Shown in pieces: positions 9,463 through 64,000 of a stretch of 64,000 bases of DNA (position 1 is its first letter; every line of letters begins with the position of its first letter). This DNA comes from Clostridia bacterium (lineage in GTDB: Bacteria; Bacillota; Clostridia; Monoglobales; Firm-18), in contig JAZREA010000026.1 of the NCBI GenBank assembly GCA_045660545.1, positions 12,561 through 76,560 on the forward strand, given 5' to 3'. Below the pieces are notes generated by a model. It saw nothing but the letters and a program-made list of their open reading frames with translations. It searched no databases and had not been told where the DNA came from. The position numbers were made by a program, and so were the translations under genes.

Positions 9463-10302
9463 TTATATTTCCTTTTCAAAGAATTTTTTCTTCAGCTTGT
9501 TGTAAAACGACTTTTCATCCTGTCTTATTGTGTTAAGATATCCGCCGTGTTCGATCTTGATTGTGTGAGCGCCCTCAAGCTCCGATACCATATTGCCGTC
9601 AACAGACAGCGCGCATTTGCTGTCAGCGTTGTTAATTTTAACTTCAATGTTAGCGTCCATCGGCACCACAATACTGCGAAGATGCAGATTGTGTGGGCAA
9701 ATCGGAGTAATTATAAATGCCTTTACAGACGGGTTAACAATAGGCCCGCCGGCAGACATTGAGTATGCGGTAGAACCGGAGGAGGTAGATATAATCAGCC
9801 CGTCGGCGCGGAACTTGTTCATCGACACCCCTTCAATTATAATCTCCGTGTCAATCATCTTAGGGGAAAAAGCTCTGTAAACAGTTACCTCGTTAATGCA
9901 AAGGCTGACGTCCTCGTGGTGCGTAACCTTTATAATTGGCAGCTTTTCAAGAATATATTTTCCTTCTAAAACCTTTAAAAGTCCGCTTTCCTCGTCGTGC
10001 TGTTCAAGCTCTGTTAAAAAGCCGATGTTGCCGTAGTTTATGCCTAAAACAGGCGTGTCTGTGTTGATATATTGCTTGCTGTGTGAAAGAAACGTTCCGT
10101 CCCCGCCGATTATAACCGCGAGGTCTACGTCCTTTTCTGTGGCTATGTCGACAAATTCTGCCTTAATCTTATACTGTTGCATATCTTTGCTCATAATAGG
10201 GGTTACGCCGTGTTTTGCAAGTATTTTAGCAACTTTTTTGGCGCCCTTTGCGTCCTTGTCTCGTTCTAAGTTTGTGATAACAACTGCCTTTTTCATAAGC
10301 AA
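9463..10302 (-). CDS. nadK: NAD kinase
   Basis: 279 aa with GGDGT motif (VIIGGDGTFL) and NAD-kinase C-terminal domain. Confidence 0.9.
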   Translation of the reverse strand: MLMKKAVVITNLERDKDAKGAKKVAKILAKHGVTPIMSKDMQQYKIKAEFVDIATEKDVDLAVIIGGDGTFLSHSKQYINTDTPVLGINYGNIGFLTELEQHDEESGLLKVLEGKYILEKLPIIKVTHHEDVSLCINEVTVYRAFSPKMIDTEIIIEGVSMNKFRADGLIISTSSGSTAYSMSAGGPIVNPSVKAFIITPICPHNLHLRSIVVPMDANIEVKINNADSKCALSVDGNMVSELEGAHTIKIEHGGYLNTIRQDEKSFYNKLKKKFFEKEI

Positions 10303-25475: not shown

Positions 25476-26927
25476 ATGCCTACTGTTTTTCCATACATAC
25501 CCGAAACGATAACCGTGCATTTGGGCGCACCGGCTTCAAATGCTCCTAATGTAACGCTGAGCTTTCCTGATTATATTAAAAATGTTGCGTCGAGCGAGAT
25601 TTATCCAACGTGGGACGAGGACGCCCTTTATGCTAACATATACGCACAGATATCCTACGCGCTAAATAGAGTTTATACCGAGTTTTACAGAGCGCAGGGC
25701 TATGACTTTGATATAACAAATAACACAGCATACGACCAGAAGTTTATAAACGGAAGGAACATTTTTTCAAACATTTCAGAGATAGTGGACGAAATTTTTG
25801 ACTCGTATCTTAGGATACAGGGCAGGGTAGAACCACTGGCCGCTAAGTATTGCAACGGCACAACCGTAACATGTCAGGGACTTTCCCAGTGGGGTAGCCA
25901 GTATCTTGCGGAGGATGGGCTTGATTATGTAAGTATTTTAAGGAACTACTATGGCGACTCTGTGGAAATTGTAACTGACGCACCAATTATGGGTATAACC
26001 GAGTCGTACCCTGGCACACCCATAAGGCTCGGAGATATAAGCGATTATGTAAGGATAGTTCAGGTGATGCTAAACAGAATATCAAACGACTATCCTTCAA
26101 TCCCCAAGACTTTTCCTCCCGACGGGATATTTGGAGAAAACACCGAGGCGGCTGTAATTCGCTTTCAGGAGATTTTTGACCTTACTCCCGATGGAATAGT
26201 CGGCAGAGCCACATGGTATCGTATGGTTTACCTTTACACAGGCATACTGCGTCTTTCTGAGCTTTATTCCGAGGGCCAGACGTACTTTGGAATCGGGCTT
26301 GAATATCCTGATGCAATAACCTTTGGCGAAAGAGGAGAAAAGGTAGAGATTTTACAATATATGCTCTCTGTTTTGTCGCAGTTTAATGAATCAATACCGC
26401 CTCTTACACAGGACGGAGTTTTTGGCGACCAGACCCTTTCGGCTGTAAAGGCGTTTCAGGAATATTACGATTTACCCGTTACAGGAGTAGTAAACGAAGA
26501 AACATGGGATTTAATATATCGTGTTTTGAAAAACACTTACGATACAGTTTTGTTTGATGCAAGGGATGTTAACGTTGCCGCAGCTCCCTACCCGGGATAT
26601 GTTCTTCAGCTTGGCTCTACCGGGGACGATGTCCGCACACTCCAACAGTATATAAATACAATCGCTGCCTACGACGAGAGCATAGACCCTGTAAGCGTAA
26701 CCGGCGTTTACGGCAGAGCAACCAGAGGCTCTGTAATGCAGCTTCAACAGAAGCTTGGGCTTTTGCGCACTGGTAATGTTAACGAGTCGACATGGGATGC
26801 GATAGCAAATGAGTATAAAAATGCCGTTTCCTCTACAAATACGGCCGAGACACAGTATCCGGGCAGAACGCTCGGCCTTAACGATTCCGATTACGGGGGT
26901 GGAAATAATGATAGCCAGCAGTCGTGA
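25476..26927 (+). CDS. peptidoglycan-binding (3x PG_binding_1-like) protein, SleC-type cortex-hydrolase-like
   Basis: 483 aa. N-terminal about 170-aa domain, then three repeats of the V..Q..L......PDG.FG..T..AV..FQ pattern. Confidence 0.75.
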   Translation: MPTVFPYIPETITVHLGAPASNAPNVTLSFPDYIKNVASSEIYPTWDEDALYANIYAQISYALNRVYTEFYRAQGYDFDITNNTAYDQKFINGRNIFSNISEIVDEIFDSYLRIQGRVEPLAAKYCNGTTVTCQGLSQWGSQYLAEDGLDYVSILRNYYGDSVEIVTDAPIMGITESYPGTPIRLGDISDYVRIVQVMLNRISNDYPSIPKTFPPDGIFGENTEAAVIRFQEIFDLTPDGIVGRATWYRMVYLYTGILRLSELYSEGQTYFGIGLEYPDAITFGERGEKVEILQYMLSVLSQFNESIPPLTQDGVFGDQTLSAVKAFQEYYDLPVTGVVNEETWDLIYRVLKNTYDTVLFDARDVNVAAAPYPGYVLQLGSTGDDVRTLQQYINTIAAYDESIDPVSVTGVYGRATRGSVMQLQQKLGLLRTGNVNESTWDAIANEYKNAVSSTNTAETQYPGRTLGLNDSDYGGGNNDSQQS

Positions 26928-56266: not shown

Positions 56267-57703
56267 ATGAATTATGCAATGATTGTATATACACTTGGCT
56301 GGGTTTTGAACTTTGAGGCGGTGTGTTTTACTTTGCCGCTTATCTGTTCTTTGATATACAAAGAGTCGCTGACGCCTATGTACGCTCTTTGCGTAGTAGT
56401 CTGCCTTGCTGTTGGTCTTGTGCTGACACATAAACAACCGAAAAATAAATCTATGTATGCAAAAGAGGGGTACGTAATCGTTGCTCTTTGCTGGATTTTA
56501 ATGAGTCTGGTTGGTTCTTTGCCGTTTAGCCTTTCGGGATATATTCCAAAGTATATTGACGCACTTTTTGAGACGGTTTCCGGTTTTACAACCACCGGTG
56601 CTACAATTTTGGCGGATGTAGAGATTTTGCCGAAATCTATACTTTTCTGGCGCAGCTTTACCCATTGGGTTGGCGGTATGGGCGTTTTGGTGTTTTTGGT
56701 TGCTATTTTGCCCCTGTCGGGCGGCAGTAATATGCACCTTGTAAAGGCGGAAAGTACAGGACCCGCTGTCAGCAAGCTTGTGCCAAAAACAGGTATGAGC
56801 GCAAAGCTTTTATACGCTATGTATATTGTGCTTTCGCTTTTGGAGTTTGTGCTTTTGCTTTTTGGCGGTCTTGACGTTTTTGATTCGCTTACGCTGATGT
56901 TTGGTACGGCAGGTACGGGCGGCTTTGGAATTTTAAATTCAAGCTTTGTTGAATATTCGTCTTATGTGCAGTATGTTGTGGCGATATTTATGGTGCTGTT
57001 TGGCATAGATTTTTCCATGTACTACCTTATTCTGATACGCAAGTTCCGCCTCGCGTTTAAATCGGACGAAATCAAGACATATATTGGAATAGTAGCAGTA
57101 GCTACACTTATTATTTGCTTCAACTGCCGCTCAATTTACGATACGCTTGCGGAAGCATTTAAACACAGCTTTTTTCAGGTTGCGTCTATTATAACTACTA
57201 CCGGTTATTCGTCCGTCGACTTTGACCAATGGCCCGAGCTTTCAAAGACCATACTTGTTGGTCTGATGTTTTGCGGCGCTTGTGCCGGCAGTACAGGCGG
57301 CGGCATTAAGGTTTCAAGAATAGTTATTCTTTTAAAGAGTGTTGTAAAGGAAATAAAAATCGCCGTTCATCCTCAAAGGGTTTATAAGACAACCATGAAC
57401 GGTACCTTGGTAGAGCACGAAACAGTCAGGGCGGTCAACGTATTTTTGGTTTCGTACCTATCCATATTCGTCGTTTCTATAATTTTAGTCAGCCTTGATA
57501 ATATGGACTTTACAACCAACTTTACGGCAGTTGCGGCGACGCTTAACAACATAGGCCCCGGTCTTGCAAAGGTTGGCCCTACTTGTAATTTTGCTGCTTT
57601 TTCGCCGTTGTCAAAAATCGTTATGATTTTTGATATGTTTATTGGAAGACTCGAAGTGTTCCCGGTTTTAATTTTGCTTTCAAGGTCTACCTGGAAGAAA
57701 TAG
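56267..57703 (+). CDS. trkH: TrkH/KtrB family potassium transporter
   Basis: 478 aa, polytopic, with selectivity-filter-like TTTGA, GTGG and TTTGY segments. Confidence 0.9.
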   Translation: MNYAMIVYTLGWVLNFEAVCFTLPLICSLIYKESLTPMYALCVVVCLAVGLVLTHKQPKNKSMYAKEGYVIVALCWILMSLVGSLPFSLSGYIPKYIDALFETVSGFTTTGATILADVEILPKSILFWRSFTHWVGGMGVLVFLVAILPLSGGSNMHLVKAESTGPAVSKLVPKTGMSAKLLYAMYIVLSLLEFVLLLFGGLDVFDSLTLMFGTAGTGGFGILNSSFVEYSSYVQYVVAIFMVLFGIDFSMYYLILIRKFRLAFKSDEIKTYIGIVAVATLIICFNCRSIYDTLAEAFKHSFFQVASIITTTGYSSVDFDQWPELSKTILVGLMFCGACAGSTGGGIKVSRIVILLKSVVKEIKIAVHPQRVYKTTMNGTLVEHETVRAVNVFLVSYLSIFVVSIILVSLDNMDFTTNFTAVAATLNNIGPGLAKVGPTCNFAAFSPLSKIVMIFDMFIGRLEVFPVLILLSRSTWKK

Positions 57704-57713
57704 GTATTAAATT

Positions 57714-57744
57714 AGTGTTCGCCTTTTTGGCGAACACTTTTTTT
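57714..57744 (+). terminator. rho-independent terminator after trkH
   Basis: AGTGTTCGCC / GGCGAACACT stem followed by T7. Confidence 0.85.
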
Positions 57745-57915
57745 CGTATTTTTGCGCAGAAAAACCAGTATGCTTTTTTAATCAAGCCACAAAAGTCATG
57801 AAATTAGCGGGGTTTCGGTGCATAATCTTTGCCAACATTTGCGTCCGCCTTTATATTAGACTTTATTTGGTGCTAAAAAAGTGCCAAATAATTTTTAAAA
57901 AAGGAGGATTGCAAA

Positions 57916-59262
57916 ATGGCAATCAAAAACGAGTTTTTCGAAACGGAAAACAACAAAAAAGCGCAGTCACAAAACACTATGGACAATTCGGGAGGGATGA
58001 GGTATAATAAAAACATAACTGATGCCTTTTTGGCTAAGAAAGAACCTTTCGAATCTTCCTTTGTCAGCTGGTATGACAAAAACAAGGGAGCCTTAAAGTA
58101 CGCAGGGGACAGTACGAAGGAAAGCGTGGAAAAAGGCCTGAGCGAAGCGCCGACGTATATGAAGGATGCAGAGCCGGGCACTAACTTTACAGACGTGCAG
58201 ACCGCGTCGGTAAAGCGCTCACTTGCAAAAGATGCAAACGACAAAGGCCTTTATAACTCTGCGGTTATGGAAATGATAGGGCTTTTGAGTACGGAAAACA
58301 AGGACCCTTATTTGAGCCAGTCGCAACCATTGCAGACGTATATTGACGCAAAGGACAAATTTGACTTTTTGCGCAACAACTACACCACAACCAAAAACAT
58401 CGACCAAACGCCCGACGAAAATGTGCGCCAGCTCCAAAGGGGACTGAATGCAGAAGGCTACACAGACAAAATGGGCCAGCCACTGAAAGAGGACGGGGTA
58501 TTCGGAGGAAAGACCGCATACGCACTAGATACGAGTAGGGCGAATATTTCAAAGATAGGAAGTATCCCATCAGTAGTAAAAGGCAATGGACTTGACATAA
58601 AATATCCAATAACAAGCATAGAGGATTTACAACTTCAAGTGTTTAAAAACGCGCAAGTAAAAAAGACGTCGAATAACAATGCGAAGCCAGCAAGTTCCAA
58701 ACCTGAAAGCCTAAAATTTATACCAGATATAATATACGATGCGTGGAACAAGGCTGAAGATAGCATATGGAAAATCGGAGCAAAAGTACTCGATTTGTAT
58801 GGATGGCATTTATCTTCAGAACTATTGTACTTGGCAGCAAGCGGAAGTGATAACAAATACGTTGCAACCGAAGGAAGCTATGCGTCTAATTTGCTAAAAA
58901 ATGACAAAGGCTTAAATAAATTTATTAATGATGTTATTTGGGAGTATGGAACAAGTAAGGGTAATAAAAACCCAGACATTCCACAGGTTTCATATAACAT
59001 ACCACTTTCAAACGGCGATTTAGGTGCTGCATTACATAAGGTCGATCTAAATATCGAAGCCAAACAAAATCCTGACGGAACATGGACTGCAACGATAAAA
59101 GCAACTGACAATTTCAATTTCTCCGAAATTGAAAATCCCCTTAAGTATAAAAAATTAAAGGAAAAAATATTATGGCTTGCAAATGATATTGCCGTCATAG
59201 ATACTAATTGGGGATTGTTAGATAATGTACCTATCGAAATAACATTTAAAAATAATTATTAA
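57916..59262 (+). CDS. polymorphic-toxin-like protein, copy 1 (conserved N-module with PG_binding-like motif + unique C-terminal domain)
   Basis: 448 aa behind a strong AAAGGAGG RBS, with no signal peptide. Residues about 22-210 are shared with the 59818 ORF, including VRQLQRGLNAEGYTDKMGQPLKEDG.FGGKT. The C-terminal about 240 aa is unique. Confidence 0.75.
   Translation: MAIKNEFFETENNKKAQSQNTMDNSGGMRYNKNITDAFLAKKEPFESSFVSWYDKNKGALKYAGDSTKESVEKGLSEAPTYMKDAEPGTNFTDVQTASVKRSLAKDANDKGLYNSAVMEMIGLLSTENKDPYLSQSQPLQTYIDAKDKFDFLRNNYTTTKNIDQTPDENVRQLQRGLNAEGYTDKMGQPLKEDGVFGGKTAYALDTSRANISKIGSIPSVVKGNGLDIKYPITSIEDLQLQVFKNAQVKKTSNNNAKPASSKPESLKFIPDIIYDAWNKAEDSIWKIGAKVLDLYGWHLSSELLYLAASGSDNKYVATEGSYASNLLKNDKGLNKFINDVIWEYGTSKGNKNPDIPQVSYNIPLSNGDLGAALHKVDLNIEAKQNPDGTWTATIKATDNFNFSEIENPLKYKKLKEKILWLANDIAVIDTNWGLLDNVPIEITFKNNY
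57970..58545 (+). repeat. 576-bp direct repeat, copy A (5' module of toxin-like genes)
   Basis: Collinear with 59809-60384 at a constant 1839-bp offset. Includes a 71-nt perfectly identical run (58408-58478) and a 48-nt one. Confidence 0.9.
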
Positions 59263-59273
59263 GAGGTGATTAC

Positions 59274-59750
59274 ATGAATATTGTATTTAAAATTGCGTCA
59301 TGTTTGCTTTCAATAGTCTTTGTAGTTGTTACATTAATTTTAATTGTTGCTGTTTTTTTACCTACTATAAATGAAACAACCAATGATTTTAACCGTCAAT
59401 TACCGAAACATTTAGATAAAGTCGAATATGTTGATGGTGGATTTGATGATTTTACCAAATACAAAGAATACTACTATTCAAAAGAAAATATCTCGGAATT
59501 TAAAAGCAACAAATATTTTAAACAAGTTAATGAGAGCGACATAGAAACAATTTATGGTTATTTTAATAATTTTGAATATTCATTGCGCTCTTTGACATAC
59601 AAGAACGAGTACAGATTCGAAAAATCTCAAATAAAGGCAAATGATTATTTTTATATAGAATCAAAAGGCGATTCACCGTATGATAATTACGACGTTTATT
59701 ACGTAGATGTCGAAAAATGCATAATGTATTTTATACATTCAAACATATAA
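59274..59750 (+). CDS. small membrane-anchored protein (candidate immunity partner 1)
   Basis: 158 aa. GAGGTG RBS, with the start 11 nt after the upstream stop. One N-terminal TM then a Tyr/Asn/Lys-rich domain. Very AT-rich. Confidence 0.7.
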   Translation: MNIVFKIASCLLSIVFVVVTLILIVAVFLPTINETTNDFNRQLPKHLDKVEYVDGGFDDFTKYKEYYYSKENISEFKSNKYFKQVNESDIETIYGYFNNFEYSLRSLTYKNEYRFEKSQIKANDYFYIESKGDSPYDNYDVYYVDVEKCIMYFIHSNI

Positions 59751-59760
59751 CAATTACTTT

Positions 59761-59800
59761 TACCAAAAGCAAAAGGCACTCGAAAATCGAGTGCCTTTTT
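59761..59800 (+). terminator. hairpin terminator / cassette junction repeat (copy 1)
   Basis: TACCAAAAGCAAAAGGCACTCGAAAATCGAGTGCCTTTTT. Near-identical to 61577-61618. Confidence 0.75.
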
Positions 59801-59808
59801 GCATCCGC

Positions 59809-60384
59809 CAAAACACTATGGACAATTCGGGAGGGATAGGGTATAATGACAACATAGGCAATACCTTTTTGGCAGGGAAAGACCCTTTCGAAGCTTCAAT
59901 GGGAGAATGGTACAAAAAGTACAACGATTCTTTAAAGTACGCCGGGGACAGAGCGAAGAAAAGTATTGTACAGGGGCTGATGGAAGCTTCTTCATACATT
60001 AAGGATGCTTCCCCCGACACTAACTTTACGGACGTACAGACAGCGTCGGTAAAGCGAAGCCTTGCAAAAGACGCAAACGACAAAGGCCTTTATAACTCTG
60101 CGGTTATGGAAATGATAGGGCATTTAAGTAGGGAGAACAAAGAGCCTTATTTAAAACAAGCTAAGCCATTACAGACGTACATTGACGCGAAAGACAACTT
60201 CGACTTTAATCACAACAACTACACCACAACCCAAAACATAGACCAGACGCCCGACGAAAATGTGCGCCAGCTCCAAAGGGGACTGAATGCAGAAGGCTAC
60301 ACAGACAAAATGGGCCAACCGCTGAAAGAGGACGGAATATTAGGAGGAAAGACCTTATACGCGTATGATACGAGTAGGGCGAAT
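59809..60384 (+). repeat. 576-bp direct repeat, copy B
   Basis: See 57970-58545. Confidence 0.9.
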
Positions 60385-61182
60385 GTACAAACAACTTTGC
60401 AATCGCAATTGTTCAAAAACACCCTGTCCGCAAGCGAGCCCGTTGCCAAAATCACAAATAATTTGAATAATACTGTAAACCAAATTAAAACAAAGATAAA
60501 AACTGTTTTTGATAAATATATCCCGTATTATTCCGAAGAAAGTGATAATATTAAGTTGTCCGACAACGGCAAGCTATCAGAAAACGACAAAAAATACAAC
60601 AAAATCAAACAAACTTTGTTGAAATGCCTGAGTGCCAATTGGTACGGAACCGCTTACAACAAAGAATTTCAAGATTATATTCACGAACAGGCTAATAGAT
60701 TAAGAGAATACGACGATAACTCATTTGAAAAAGTAGTATTACTAAATAAATCGACCGGGGCTAGTAACCTGGGACATAACGCCGTTATGCTTATTAATAA
60801 AGACAACGAAGGTCTAATTTTTAGTTTTTATTCAACCTCTTCTAATTTTATTAAATCCGTGCGAACCCAAGCAGAAGTTAGATTTGGAGTGTTAAATTCT
60901 GAAGAAGTTAATAATTTATTGTATAAAAATAACAAGAACGTTCTCTTTTTTACTGCCAGTGATAATTCTATAGTTAGAGAAACATATGATAACTTTAAAA
61001 CATACAATCTAAACAGCACAGGTTACAATATGTACAATGCTGCTGTTGCTCTATACGACTGCCCGAGTTACTATTCTTTGGTTTCGAGGCATTGTGACAT
61101 TATTGCAGTAGAATTACTAAAAGAAGGCGGTATAGATATTAACAGATGGGTAATACCAAACTGGACGTACGAAAATAACTAG
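59818..61182 (+). CDS. polymorphic-toxin-like protein, copy 2 (same N-module, different C-terminal domain; possibly orphan/silent)
   Basis: The open frame begins exactly at the homology edge (MDNSGG). There is no SD before ATG 59818, and the GTG at 59791 lies inside the terminator stem. The C-terminal domain has GHNAVML (His) ... YSLVSRHCDIIAVELL (Cys). Confidence 0.6.
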   Translation: MDNSGGIGYNDNIGNTFLAGKDPFEASMGEWYKKYNDSLKYAGDRAKKSIVQGLMEASSYIKDASPDTNFTDVQTASVKRSLAKDANDKGLYNSAVMEMIGHLSRENKEPYLKQAKPLQTYIDAKDNFDFNHNNYTTTQNIDQTPDENVRQLQRGLNAEGYTDKMGQPLKEDGILGGKTLYAYDTSRANVQTTLQSQLFKNTLSASEPVAKITNNLNNTVNQIKTKIKTVFDKYIPYYSEESDNIKLSDNGKLSENDKKYNKIKQTLLKCLSANWYGTAYNKEFQDYIHEQANRLREYDDNSFEKVVLLNKSTGASNLGHNAVMLINKDNEGLIFSFYSTSSNFIKSVRTQAEVRFGVLNSEEVNNLLYKNNKNVLFFTASDNSIVRETYDNFKTYNLNSTGYNMYNAAVALYDCPSYYSLVSRHCDIIAVELLKEGGIDINRWVIPNWTYENN

Positions 61183-61215
61183 TTTTAAAAATACAATGAT
61201 AAAGGAGAATATGAT

Positions 61216-61554
61216 ATGTCAAAAAAAGCATCGAGAATCCTATTTTATCTTATCCATTGCGTAATAGCTTTTGTTGCAGGAACTACCATTATACATATGT
61301 ATTTCGAAAAGTTTGTTAACACAAATAATTCATATCTATATTTCGTATTAGAATACGCTTTTTTATGTTTTTGCGTTATCAATTTTTTCGTTATATTTTT
61401 CTCTTATAGATTATTGAAACTCGAAAAAGGGAAGAAATTCTATCCCATTCTCTTTATTAACTACATAATTGCAAATGTATGTTCTTATTTGACTTTTTAT
61501 TTTGCAATTTATGTATTTATTTTTATTAGGTTGATGATATATGGTCTTTACTGA
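61216..61554 (+). CDS. small polytopic membrane protein (candidate immunity partner 2)
   Basis: 112 aa, 3-4 TM, AAAGGAG RBS, extremely AT-rich. Confidence 0.7.
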   Translation: MSKKASRILFYLIHCVIAFVAGTTIIHMYFEKFVNTNNSYLYFVLEYAFLCFCVINFFVIFFSYRLLKLEKGKKFYPILFINYIIANVCSYLTFYFAIYVFIFIRLMIYGLY

Positions 61555-61576
61555 TTAAATAACGGACATATCCCTA

Positions 61577-61655
61577 TACCAAAATCAAAAGGCACCCAGT
61601 TGATCGAGTGCCTTTTTTGTATTACAAAAAGGATGTGGACAATTCGGTAGGGGTA
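61577..61655 (+). repeat. third cassette junction: hairpin repeat plus about 20-nt stub of the 5' module
   Basis: TACCAAAATCAAAAGGCACCCAGTTGATCGAGTGCCTTTTTT, then after 19 nt GGACAATTCGGTAGGGG (compare GGACAATTCGGGAGGG at 59820). Homology ends there. Confidence 0.65.
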
Positions 61656-61753
61656 ATTTTGCGTACGAGACTGTCATTCACTACCGCTCCTTCGAATCCC
61701 TCGTCAAATAAACTGCAACAAAAAAGAACACCCTGACGGATGTCCTTTTTTGT

Positions 61754-61830
61754 TGGCGCGCCTGAAGGGATTCGAACCCCTGACCTAACGGTTCGTAGCC
61801 GTTCACTCTATCCAGCTGAGCTACAGGCGC
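61754..61830 (-). tRNA. tRNA-Arg (anticodon ACG)
   Basis: Reverse complement is GCGCCTGTAGCTCAGCTGGATAGAGTGAACGGCTACGAACCGTTAGGTCAGGGGTTCGAATCCCTTCAGGCGCGCCA. Cloverleaf folds and CCA is encoded. Confidence 0.92.
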
Positions 61831-61998
61831 ACATGTCTTAAAATCAAACTGCCTAACTATAATAACACATATAACAGTAAAAATCAAGGACTTTTGTTAA
61901 AAAAATCTAAACATTTACAAAATTAATCATTTTATATTGAAAAATCGCAGAAATTGTGGTAGAATATTAAAGATAGTACAAGATAGGAGATTTTTGCG

Positions 61999-63132
61999 AT
62001 GCAGGATGTGTATTTTGACAACGGAGCAACAACCAAGGTTGACGTTCGAGTTGCTGATGTTATATATAAAGCTATGACTGAAAGTTATGGTAATCCGTCG
62101 TCATTACATTCCAAAGGGCTTGAGGCCGAGCGTCTTTTAAAGCGTGCTCGTGCGACAATCGCCGATAAGTTAAAAGCCTTTCCGGAGGAGATTGTTTTTA
62201 CGTCAGGAGGCTCGGAGTCTAACAACCTCGCTATCCTTGGCAGTACCGCGCTTTTTAGAACAAAGGGTGAAATAATTACCTCCAAGGTTGAACACAAAAG
62301 CGTTTTAGAGTGTATGAAGTGCCTTGAAGAACAAGGCTTTACCGTAATATATTTAGATGTAGACGAAAACGGCGTTGTAATTTTAGATGATTTAAAAGCT
62401 AAGTTGTCCGCCAATACTCAGCTCGTCAGCGTAATGCACGTTAATAACGAGTGTGGCTCAATACAGCCCATTAACGATATGTATAAGGCGGTTAAAGATT
62501 ATAACCCTAAAATATTGTTCCATACAGATAATGTTCAGGGCTTTTGCAAGGTGGAAGAGCCTGTTATGTGTGATATGATGAGCGTGTCTGCTCATAAAAT
62601 ACATGGCCCCAAGGGCGTTGGCGCCTTGTATGTTAAAAAGGGGATAAGACTTTCCCCCGTTATATACGGAGGGGGACAGGAAAGAGGCATAAGAGGCGGA
62701 ACGGAAAATGTGCCCGGCGTTTTGGGCTTTGCCGAGGCTGTCAGCATTTTTAAAAACGAAAGTGATAGACTAAAAGAGCTTAAAAAGCATATTATAGACC
62801 GCGTAACGAAGGAGATTCCAAAGGTTTTTGTTAACGCTGATTTTTCCTCTTCGTCGTCATATATACTTAATATTGCCATGCTTGGTCTTCGCTCCGAGAT
62901 AATTTTGCACTCGTTAGAGCAAAGGGGCATATACGTTTCCTCGGGCTCTGCGTGCTCTTCTCACAAGCCGTCACCAAGCCATGTGCTAAGCGCCATGGGC
63001 TTTTCTGCCGCAAGGGTTGACAGCAGCATAAGGCTTAGCTTTTGCGCCGGAAACACGGTAGAAGAAGCAGACGCCTTTTGCGACGCGCTGTTGGAAATTG
63101 CCAATATTAATAAAAAGGTCAGGAGATTGTAA
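61999..63132 (+). CDS. cysteine desulfurase (NifS/IscS family)
   Basis: 377 aa with the PLP Lys motif SVSAHKIHGPKG and the C-terminal active-site loop SSGSACSS. Confidence 0.9.
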   Translation: MQDVYFDNGATTKVDVRVADVIYKAMTESYGNPSSLHSKGLEAERLLKRARATIADKLKAFPEEIVFTSGGSESNNLAILGSTALFRTKGEIITSKVEHKSVLECMKCLEEQGFTVIYLDVDENGVVILDDLKAKLSANTQLVSVMHVNNECGSIQPINDMYKAVKDYNPKILFHTDNVQGFCKVEEPVMCDMMSVSAHKIHGPKGVGALYVKKGIRLSPVIYGGGQERGIRGGTENVPGVLGFAEAVSIFKNESDRLKELKKHIIDRVTKEIPKVFVNADFSSSSSYILNIAMLGLRSEIILHSLEQRGIYVSSGSACSSHKPSPSHVLSAMGFSAARVDSSIRLSFCAGNTVEEADAFCDALLEIANINKKVRRL

Positions 63133-64000
63133 TGGATAAAATTATTCTTTTAAAATACGGCGAGATTATTCTAAAAGGTCTTAACAGACCGCGTTTTGAA
63201 AATATTCTTATGGAAAATATTTCGCAGTATGTTGATAAAACAAAGGTCAGGATATGGAAAGCGCAGGCGACAATTTACGTCGAGCCTTTGACGGACGACG
63301 TAGATATGGACGCGATGGCTGTAAAGCTTACTAAGGTCTTTGGCGTAGTGGCTGTTGCGCTCGCACACGTTGTGCCAAAGGATATCGACCTGATATGCAA
63401 AAAGGCTGCTGAGGTTGCGGGCTCTACAAAGGGCTCTACCTTCAAGGTGGAGGCCAAAAGAGCTGACAAGAAGTTCCCGTATAACTCGCCGCAAATCTGT
63501 ATGCAGGCAGGCGGTGCGGTTTTAGAGGCTAACCCTCACCTTAAAGTTGACGTTCACAACCCTGACTTTATTGTAAACGTGGAAATAAGGGACTTTGCGG
63601 CGTATATCTATGCCGAAAAGCTTCAGGGAGTAGGCGGAATGCCGATAGGTACTAACGGCAAGGCTACCCTCTTGCTCTCGGGAGGTATTGACAGCCCCGT
63701 TGCAGGCTATATGATTGCCAAAAGAGGCGCGTATATTAACGCGGTACACTTTTACAGCTATCCTTACACGAGCGAAAGAGCTAAGGAAAAGGTTTTAGAC
63801 CTCGCGCAGATTCTGGCTGACTATTGTGGCGAAATTAAGGTGCATGTTGTGCCGTTTACAGAAATACAGCTTGCGATTAACGATAAATGTCCCGAGGAAC
63901 AGCTGACCGTTATAATGCGTAGAATTATGATGCGTATTGCAGATATCATAGCCCATAAAACCGGCTCGTACGCTCTTATTACGGGCGAGAGTATAGGCCA
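63132..64000 (+). CDS. thiI: tRNA 4-thiouridine synthase ThiI (3' end runs off window)
   Basis: Not in ORF track because it is truncated. ATG overlaps the nifS stop (TAATG). MDKIILLKYGEIILKGLNRPRFE start, later the PP-loop LLLSGGIDSPVAG. Confidence 0.9.
   Translation, partial: MDKIILLKYGEIILKGLNRPRFENILMENISQYVDKTKVRIWKAQATIYVEPLTDDVDMDAMAVKLTKVFGVVAVALAHVVPKDIDLICKKAAEVAGSTKGSTFKVEAKRADKKFPYNSPQICMQAGGAVLEANPHLKVDVHNPDFIVNVEIRDFAAYIYAEKLQGVGGMPIGTNGKATLLLSGGIDSPVAGYMIAKRGAYINAVHFYSYPYTSERAKEKVLDLAQILADYCGEIKVHVVPFTEIQLAINDKCPEEQLTVIMRRIMMRIADIIAHKTGSYALITGESIG

Follow-up and report, generated by a model that had tools for sequence, protein, structure and literature searches.

How a protein that has no secretion signal and carries a peptidoglycan-binding domain gets from the cytoplasm to another cell is the question raised by a locus of four co-oriented genes at positions 57916 to 61554 of a 64,000-nucleotide (nt) stretch of DNA from a Clostridia bacterium (hereafter the window, i.e., the whole stretch analysed; GenBank assembly GCA_045660545.1, contig JAZREA010000026.1, positions 12,561 to 76,560 of the forward strand). 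The genes, here called g1, i1, g2, and i2, were delineated from a list of open reading frames (ORFs) and by direct reading of the sequence. From the arrangement of these genes and that of their relatives, we consider it likely that they form a small chromosomal polymorphic-toxin island between trkH and a tRNA-Arg gene, comprising one expressed toxin/immunity pair and one orphan pair. Both g1 and g2 carry a common N-terminal module (N-module) and end in different C-terminal domains (tips CT1 and CT2), and each is followed by its own small gene. The layout is as follows.

57916-59262, plus strand: g1, 448 amino acids (aa), from the ORF list; the sole copy with its own Shine-Dalgarno sequence (SD) and leader
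57916-57978, plus strand: g1 leader, aa 1-21, MAIKNEFFETENNKKAQSQNT, absent from g2
57979-58413, plus strand: helical core of the N-module, aa 22-166, with invariant W52 and YAGD 62-65, among others
58414-58545, plus strand: PG_binding_1-like repeat (Pfam PF01471), aa 167-210, the last part of the shared module
58546-58725, plus strand: variable disordered linker, aa 211-270, in which the similarity to g2 ends
58726-59259, plus strand: CT1, mobile toxin domain, aa 271-448, putative colicin-M-like fold, 34% GC
59274-59750, plus strand: i1, 158 aa, candidate immunity protein for CT1
59809-60384, plus strand: second N-module copy, beginning at the codon-19 equivalent (QNTMDNSGG), with no SD upstream
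59818-61182, plus strand: g2, 454 aa from the ATG at 59818, orphan-like toxin ORF
60394-61179, plus strand: CT2, linker and alpha+beta putative toxin domain, 33% GC
61216-61554, plus strand: i2, 112 aa, three to four transmembrane (TM) segments, candidate immunity protein for CT2
61627-61655, plus strand: third module start, a 29-nt stub (…TGGACAATTCGGTAGGGG…) with 79% identity
61754-61830, minus strand: tRNA-Arg(ACG), the distal edge of the island

The sequence-only reading of this DNA had described two large ORFs sharing a collinear 576-bp region, and alignment bears this out: the repeat at 57970-58545 matches the second copy without gaps at an offset of 1839 nt, with 472 of 576 positions (82%) identical and 71% identity at the protein level. 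It sets in at …CAAAACACTATGGACAATTCGG…, around codon 19 of g1. Of the perfect runs then listed, the one of 71 nt (58408-58478) stands, the one given as 48 nt is really 49 nt long (58234-58282), and a further run of 29 nt (57970-57998) marks the start of the repeat. By BLASTP, g1 and g2 share 154 of 217 residues (71%; E 6e-106) over g1 residues 19-235, and the similarity stops right after DTSRAN with nothing aligning beyond, the point at which the two had been said to become unrelated. Each toxin ORF is closely followed by a different small, AT-rich membrane protein gene, also as first described, i1 lying 11 nt past g1 and i2 33 nt past g2. The predicted i1 product has one N-terminal hydrophobic segment (a TM anchor) and a soluble domain of ~120 aa, and that of i2 has three hydrophobic stretches, consistent with three to four TM segments. 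Base composition jumps between module, tip, and small gene, from 45-46% GC in the modules to 33-34% in the C-terminal parts, 26.6% in i1, and 25.3% in i2, against 41.5% for the window. To this picture we add that g2 is without the g1 leader and SD, that each small gene is followed by a terminator, and that a third copy of the module has left a 29-nt stub ~10 nt past the second terminator hairpin, after which comes unrelated sequence adjoining tRNA-Arg(ACG). The unit of module start, tip, small gene, and terminator is thus present 2.05 times.

The N-module stays constant across relatives while what follows it changes. A search of 5.8 billion proteins with g1 returned 87 matches of two kinds. 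Those of the first kind match g1 residues 1-210, at the extreme N-terminus throughout, and are followed by differing C-termini (Ntox44, SLT, DUF6973, g1-type, and g2-type); those of the second kind match g1 residues ~273-448 only, i.e., the tip. When 1.84 billion cluster representatives were searched exhaustively with an HMMER profile, 264 matched, and roughly 60 to 70 of the 150 profile matches listed, from uncultured Clostridia, contain the helical part. The N-module is always N-terminal, in proteins of at most 557 aa (~515 aa or less among the profile matches listed). The other profile matches listed, counted by profile match, cover only positions ~168-217 (the peptidoglycan-binding repeat) in unrelated proteins, often with several such repeats. 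The leaders of the relatives, 20 to 60 aa long, read MAI.F..TERRE..K.VDNS; distant members have a Zn-ribbon leader in place of MAI…TERRE…VDNS and bring further tips, including glycine-zipper and M23. Altogether, at least seven kinds of tip (Ntox44, SLT, DUF6973, M23, glycine-zipper, CT1, and CT2) are found behind the N-module in gut and rumen Clostridia. The Zn-ribbon-like leader (RCxRCNRxLxDPxAxYGWRCA, marginal to DUF6011) is present in P0017, P0060, P0046, and P0123-P0140 and also heads CT1 carriers of 275-301 aa, so that the two kinds of short N-terminal tag, Zn-ribbon and MAI…TERRE, appear interchangeable from the sequences compared.

In profile scans of contigs, the set of species-representative genomes yielded five N-module loci only, four of them in one Clostridia metagenome-assembled genome (MAG), and no locus was confirmed among the metagenome contigs scanned. 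The N-module family is uncommon and confined to a single lineage. One MAG, JAZOOD01 (loci L009, L010, and L011), has no fewer than four copies of the N-module, and three of these lie on contigs of ~2.5 kb. Short-read assemblies thus seem to break at the repeated module, and the copy numbers seen in MAGs are probably too low.

CT1, for its part, is found on several other carriers. It ends Rhs/YD-shell proteins (P0050, P0070, P0082, and P0016, together with P0033, named "RHS repeat-associated core" by its source), and in P0050 a PF25023 domain at residues 52-168 is followed by CT1 at residues 176-348. It also ends many Zn-ribbon-led proteins of 275-301 aa, which start with RCxRCNRxLSDPxAxYGWRCA, and one protein, P0037, that we take from its PLHPNCDC motif to be of the MuF type. 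A constant N-module with tips that vary across relatives, and a tip shared with Rhs carriers, agree with the toxin-immunity architecture proposed in the sequence-only reading.

The small genes behave as expected from that architecture, the downstream gene co-varying with the C-terminal domain at L001, L002, and L005. Locus L002 is syntenic with the window on one side (tRNA-Arg, nifS, and thiI downstream); there, two i1 paralogues (55% and 58% identity) come after an orthologue of g1 (57% identity). At L005, a Zn-ribbon-led protein with a g1-type tip precedes an i1 homologue (41%, E 2e-25), and at L001 an N-module protein with a g2-type tip (70%) precedes a 112-aa i2 homologue (65%); another i2 homologue lies behind a g2-type remnant at L013. 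i1 hence follows CT1 in three contexts, and because the small genes follow the tip and not the N-terminus, we regard i1 and i2 as probable immunity genes. In L002, a leader ORF (MSIKKSFNENNKIITEGRDLYAE*) at 9912-10003 is split from the toxin ORF by a stop codon; judging from this sequence, the L002 toxin may be decaying while its immunity gene has been kept and duplicated.

The AlphaFold2 model of CT1 has a predicted local distance difference test (pLDDT) score mostly above 90. Its top 11 Foldseek matches in the PDB are to colicin M (ColM), pectocins M1 and M2, syringacin M, and the Bacteroides type VI secretion system (T6SS) effector BtpeA-CTD, with E values of 0.02-0.4; the Foldseek probability is 0.84-0.95 among the eight best, and three more pectocin M2 chains follow at 0.41-0.51. 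By hhalign, CT1 was compared with E. coli ColM (P 0.01) and with a 15-member ColM profile (P 0.002), and both runs pair G(T/S)W…D-x-F-D-F of CT1 with GSW…D226-K-Y-D229-F of ColM, the core of the catalytic signature DxYDx5HR of that toxin (PMC5821083). Within the CT1 family the first Asp (D137) is invariant and the second (D140) at least 90% conserved. ColM domains are known on Rhs proteins (P0260). The CT1 profile gave only chance-level matches against PDB sequences. On balance, the evidence tilts toward CT1 being a ColM-like tip that targets lipid II.

CT2 is of a different kind. Eleven aligned CT2 domains have 34 invariant columns, among them H81, C187, E114, R116, D143, and R185, the invariant His lying in GHNAVML and the Cys in RxCD, and the AlphaFold2 model is an alpha+beta domain. 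Because an invariant His/Cys pair goes together with a polytopic partner, the sequence suggests a thiol hydrolase acting at the envelope. Two candidate relationships were weighed. The matches of the CT2 profile to TetR/LuxR proteins among PDB sequences cover a short GH..FSF..RF stretch only and were judged spurious, and a likeness to LRAT/NlpC-P60, considered for a His…Cys order like that of NCEHF, was supported by none of the tools and stays conjectural.

For the N-module, AlphaFold2 predicts g1 residues ~50-210 with pLDDT above 90 as eight short packed helices ending in those of the peptidoglycan-binding repeat; residues 1-32 and the linker at 216-246 have pLDDT below 50 (disordered). The PG_binding_1-like motif noted at the outset falls short of the Pfam cut-off of 23 bits for PF01471 in g1 (21.3 bits, E 3e-4) and g2 (16.1 bits), while a family member, P0025, passes it at 31.7 bits. 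This repeat was all that searches of g1, g2, i1, and i2 against Pfam, NCBIfam, PHROGs, PADLOC, and PDB sequences turned up. The helical core had no match in Pfam, NCBIfam, PDB sequences, PDB folds, or BFVD, in keeping with the earlier suggestion that the family may be undescribed. The N-module profile gave chance-level matches only against PDB sequences, Foldseek against BFVD found no fold match beyond a 51-residue peptidoglycan-binding piece, and a Foldseek search with the g2 model against the PDB and BFVD found nothing credible for N-module or CT2. None of 50,697 phage records matched the N-module by tblastn, and no description of an N-module carrier was found in the literature search and domain libraries. 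Elsewhere in the window, at 25476-26924, a 483-aa protein unrelated to the toxin locus has three strong PG_binding_1 repeats (E 3e-46) and shows that this domain is used elsewhere in the genome.

Around g1 and g2 lie the following expression signals.

57829-57857, plus strand: sigma-70-like promoter candidate for g1 (TTGCCA-17-TATATT), 10/12 in a consensus scan
57863-57891, plus strand: terminator-like hairpin and T-run in the 5' untranslated region of g1, upstream of the SD
59771-59799, no strand assigned: intrinsic-terminator hairpin ending cassette 1, between i1 and g2
61587-61616, no strand assigned: intrinsic-terminator hairpin ending cassette 2, after i2, homologous to the first hairpin

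The g1 SD, AAGGAGG, is at 57901-57907. We only infer the g1 promoter, the count of promoter-like sites in the region being not above that in shuffled sequence. The upstream order of promoter candidate, hairpin, and SD may represent a leader attenuator. g2 is differently equipped: because its homology to g1 starts only at g1 codon ~19, it is without the first ~18-21 codons of g1 and without the SD of g1, and no SD was found ahead of its ATG at 59818 or of an alternative upstream start, GTG 59791, that would give 463 aa. Downstream copies in other arrays are 5'-truncated as well, at differing points (P0077 in L001; P0102 and a 56-aa stub in L013), and wherever the 5' context of the first gene in an array was read (window, L001, and L013), that gene has the leader. 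The second cassette therefore looks like a 5'-truncated orphan and not an equal partner of g1. An integron-like, site-specific cassette mechanism, considered for the combination of hairpin and conserved junction, was discarded: no integrase turned up in the window, the hairpins are plain terminators, and none lies between the L001 cassettes.

Traces of exchange within the module are visible in a related genome. Its protein P0003 is a mosaic in which the g1 leader (20 of 21 residues) is followed by 39 residues all identical to g2 (22 of 39 to g1), then by a segment closer to g1, and then by a g2-type tip. P0091, on the same contig of this sister genome, is an in-frame deletion chimera that joins a fragment of the N-module to the last 125 residues of a tip, 94% identical to CT2. 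As far as sequence comparison can tell, the two are footprints of exchange within the module, and by analogy they match the orphan model of Rhs and contact-dependent inhibition (CDI) toxins as outlined in PMC3150448 and PMC3967940.

The island is set among housekeeping genes. Upstream are genes for a diacylglycerol (DAG) kinase, two GFO/IDH/MocA oxidoreductases, a HAD hydrolase, TrkA, and TrkH; downstream are tRNA-Arg and a cysteine desulfurase and, farther on, Eut, SecDF, DXS, and others. This context was read from the flanking genes that were scanned and, farther off in the window, from the largest ORFs, and among the ORFs so scanned there was no secretion or type VII secretion system (T7SS) gene and none of EssC size. 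By Kyte-Doolittle hydropathy (maximum 19-residue mean, 0.85), g1 and g2 are free of hydrophobic stretches and hence of a signal peptide or TM segment, and both are without a match to Pfam LXG (PF04740) or WXG100 at E <= 1, to RHS_repeat/YD-shell, or to any trafficking domain in Pfam or NCBIfam, so that the absences first noted from sequence (signal peptide, LXG/WXG, Rhs/YD, and secretion genes nearby) hold for the proteins and the 64-kb window. No Phage_Mu_F domain was found in g1 or g2 and no prophage context in the window. The related loci L001, L002, and L015-L018 are likewise set among housekeeping genes, the L005 neighbourhood has no secretion or phage genes, and the gene tables of the nine related loci inspected list no T7SS genes nearby. 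The exception is L013/L014, where a seven-gene, co-oriented phage structural block (L013 1605-6969) ends 32 nt upstream of an N-module+SLT gene. It encodes an acidic scaffold-like protein (209 aa), a major head protein (276 aa; phrog_267, E 1.8e-35), and an internal-virion-protein homologue (603 aa; phrog_511, E 4.6e-32), has host genes on both sides, and shows no portal, terminase, or integrase gene within ±7 kb. By its gene content, the block may be what is left of a prophage, or else may encode a capsid-derived particle tied to toxin delivery.

An Rfam scan of 57000-64000 found the tRNA alone. In both syntenic loci, a 30-nt element, CTGTCATTCAYTHCCGCTCCTTCGAATCCC, lies near tRNA-Arg (window 61671-61700; L002 12453-12482 and 12600-12629), doubled in L002 along with part of the tRNA 3' region. 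It holds a T-loop-like TTCGAATCCC in the orientation opposite to the tRNA, has no Rfam match, and may be an att site or tRNA remnant marking the insertion of the island.

Set beside the hallmarks of polymorphic toxins given by Zhang et al. 2012 (PMC3482391), the locus has a constant N-terminus with diverse C-termini, a tip that occurs on other scaffolds, a co-varying downstream gene, and orphan cassettes with evidence of recombination; a recognisable secretion or trafficking determinant, also among the hallmarks, was not found. The latter weighs against our reading, as do several points on the individual genes. The antagonism model would fail if the g1 and g2 proteins were never exported. The link between CT1 and ColM is weak, with Foldseek E values of at least 0.02 and TM-scores of 0.12-0.31, and the ColM family PF14859 has no match in g1 at E <= 1 or in 18 family members at E <= 10. 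The HR of DxYDx5HR is not conserved in the CT1 family, and g1 itself reads DNFN; because this puts an Asn at the D229-equivalent position, g1 could be catalytically impaired. The g1 orthologue P0002 reads DNYD. CT2 has no relative of known function detectable by Foldseek against the PDB and BFVD or by profile searches. Finally, the 454-codon reading frame of g2 is uninterrupted and has an ATG in frame, and with a TGGACA-17-TATAAT motif at 59819-59847 this makes independent expression of g2 possible.

This last point leads to the alternative of a two-weapon tandem in which both cassettes are independently expressed, g2 from ATG 59818 or from the TGGACA-17-TATAAT motif. The g2 and i2 ORFs are both intact, the motif (11/12) recurs within the first 40 nt of both cassettes (57980-58008 and 59819-59847), and several relatives are called from MDNS (P0011, P0012, P0018, P0020, and P0023). 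The motif could be an internal promoter or a mere by-product of protein conservation, and the latter would explain it because it overlies the invariant codons D23, Y30, and N31 (VDN…YN); besides, a transcript from 59819-59847 would begin downstream of ATG 59818. With no SD at either start, a terminator directly upstream, still more severely truncated downstream copies in other arrays (P0077 and P0102), and the leader present as described on the first-in-array genes read, we find independent expression of both cassettes unlikely. A degenerate prophage lysis cassette, with a wall-binding endolysin and a holin, was the alternative offered in the sequence-only reading, and the PG_binding_1 repeat, the small membrane proteins downstream, and marginal PHROG endolysin matches (E 0.03-0.04) go in its direction. 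Closer inspection does not support it: those matches span the peptidoglycan-binding stretch only, no lysin catalytic domain was found in g1 or g2, i1 with its TM anchor and 120-aa soluble domain is not holin-like, CT1 also sits on Rhs tips, the flanks are housekeeping genes, and the order of toxin then membrane protein is repeated in tandem with different tips. We deem it very improbable. An intracellular toxin-antitoxin or anti-phage abortive-infection module would likewise place a toxin next to a protective gene, and the locus is AT-rich, mobile, and beside a tRNA; yet PADLOC matches were at chance level only, the partners are membrane proteins, the peptidoglycan-binding domain implies action outside the cytoplasm, and the tips are common to exported Rhs toxins, which leaves this explanation scarcely credible.

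Two further alternatives accept a toxin and concern its export. g1 and g2 might be substrates of a T7SS, or another specialised secretion system, whose apparatus is encoded elsewhere, with the helical N-module as a functional LXG analogue. With the LXG toxins, they have in common that they are polymorphic toxins of Firmicutes, that their N-terminus is helical and spans ~200 aa, and that a signal peptide is missing. T7SS carriers have been reported to bear Ntox44 tips (PMC3482391), and TelC with TipC, as outlined in PMC5555719 and PMC6193138, sets a precedent: TelC targets lipid II and works outside the membrane, and an immunity protein at the surface neutralises it. Unlike the LXG toxins, g1 and g2 have a peptidoglycan-binding repeat and no LXG/WXG match at E <= 1, the model shows short packed helices and not a long hairpin, Lap-like helper genes are missing upstream, as is an ORF of EssC size from the 64 kb, and none of the nine related loci inspected has T7SS genes nearby. 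We regard this route as distinctly unlikely. Or the proteins might be phage derived and particle dependent, the N-module being a virion- or capsid-association domain like MuF and the window locus a detached cargo gene. The N-module+SLT gene 32 nt past the phage head block in L013/L014, the resemblance of the SLT and M23 tips to virion-associated lysins, and the occurrence of CT1 on P0037, presumably of MuF type by its motif, all fit. g1 and g2 also share several features with MuF toxins, being short, unstalked, leaderless, and from Firmicutes, with variable tips and downstream immunity genes (PMC3482391). Against this, they have no MuF domain, no phage genes were found in the window, L001, L002, or L015-L018, the N-module is unmatched in the 50,697 phage records and its BFVD fold match is confined to the 51-residue piece, and the L013 block is without portal, terminase, and integrase within ±7 kb. 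An obligate phage-particle origin thus seems quite improbable.

The polymorphic-toxin island, the reading we prefer, has partial counterparts among known systems. In Rhs and CDI loci of E. coli and Salmonella, as outlined in PMC3150448 and PMC3967940, promoterless 5'-truncated orphans keep a constant stretch for recombination into the expressed gene. Our locus shares with them a constant upstream region, a variable C-terminal toxin, and an immunity gene directly downstream, as well as CT1 on Rhs tips elsewhere; it differs in having no YD/Rhs repeats, PxxxxDPxGL core, haemagglutinin repeats, or partner of the two-partner, type V, or type VI secretion systems, and in that its constant region is ~210 aa at the extreme N-terminus, of which the orphan keeps ~90% and not a short stub. 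ColM-type bacteriocins, with their Cmi/PmiA immunity, are also leaderless modular proteins, in which an N-terminal targeting part is joined to a C-terminal domain that degrades lipid II, and the topology of i1 parallels that of the ColM immunity protein Cmi (~117 aa, one TM anchor, periplasmic; other ColM immunity proteins have four TM segments) (PMC5821083). i1 shows no sequence relation to Cmi and has no YebF domain. In a Gram-positive host there is, in contrast to ColM, no TonB box or outer-membrane receptor domain; the N-module is unrelated, and the toxin has no Pfam ColM match, lacks the HR, and reads DNFN in g1. The ABP system (AbpT/AbpP/AbpI; PMC13460014), recognised only recently, similarly comprises diffusible toxins of Gram-positive bacteria that are polymorphic and have a new N-terminal domain as their defining feature, but its Sec signal and BetaH (beta-sheet + helix) domain in AbpT, adjacent S8 protease, and cytoplasmic immunity are all absent here. 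What is new in the locus is the carrier module with unexplained export, a probable ColM-like tip in Clostridia, and the His/Cys tip.

The sequence of events that these elements would allow can be outlined. g1 would be made from its own promoter and SD and exit the cell along a path independent of a Sec signal peptide, whereupon the peptidoglycan-binding N-module would dock the protein on the cell wall and the putative ColM-like tip attack lipid II at the outer face of the membrane. In the producer, i1, anchored by its one TM segment and with its soluble domain assumed by analogy with Cmi to face outward, would block the tip. g2 and i2 would constitute a reserve cassette, with i2 providing standing immunity, and homologous recombination in the 576-nt module would put CT2 and i2 behind the g1 leader, changing the weapon. 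For the export step, analogy offers leaderless release as in ColM, an unlinked T7SS, or a phage-derived particle as options.

Far fewer interbacterial toxins have been charted in Gram-positive anaerobes than in Proteobacteria, and this locus adds a compact leaderless carrier to them. In the ColM review PMC5821083 we found no ColM-like tip described for Firmicutes; it mentions neither Firmicutes nor Clostridia. The 576-nt repeat with its 71-nt perfect run, the stub, and the mosaic relative make a clean natural example of cassette exchange on a Gram-positive chromosome. It is also conceivable, although we consider it less likely than not, that leader, helical domain, and peptidoglycan-binding repeat together represent an unrecognised delivery or targeting route of Gram-positive polymorphic toxins, independent of Sec, T7SS, and Rhs. 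By analogy, such a route could take the form of a colicin-like diffusible bacteriocin that docks on peptidoglycan, or that of cargo in a portal-less, phage-capsid-derived particle like the L013 block, and the swappable leaders (MAI..TERRE..VDNS or RCxRCNR..GWRCA) would then serve as its export or loading tag.

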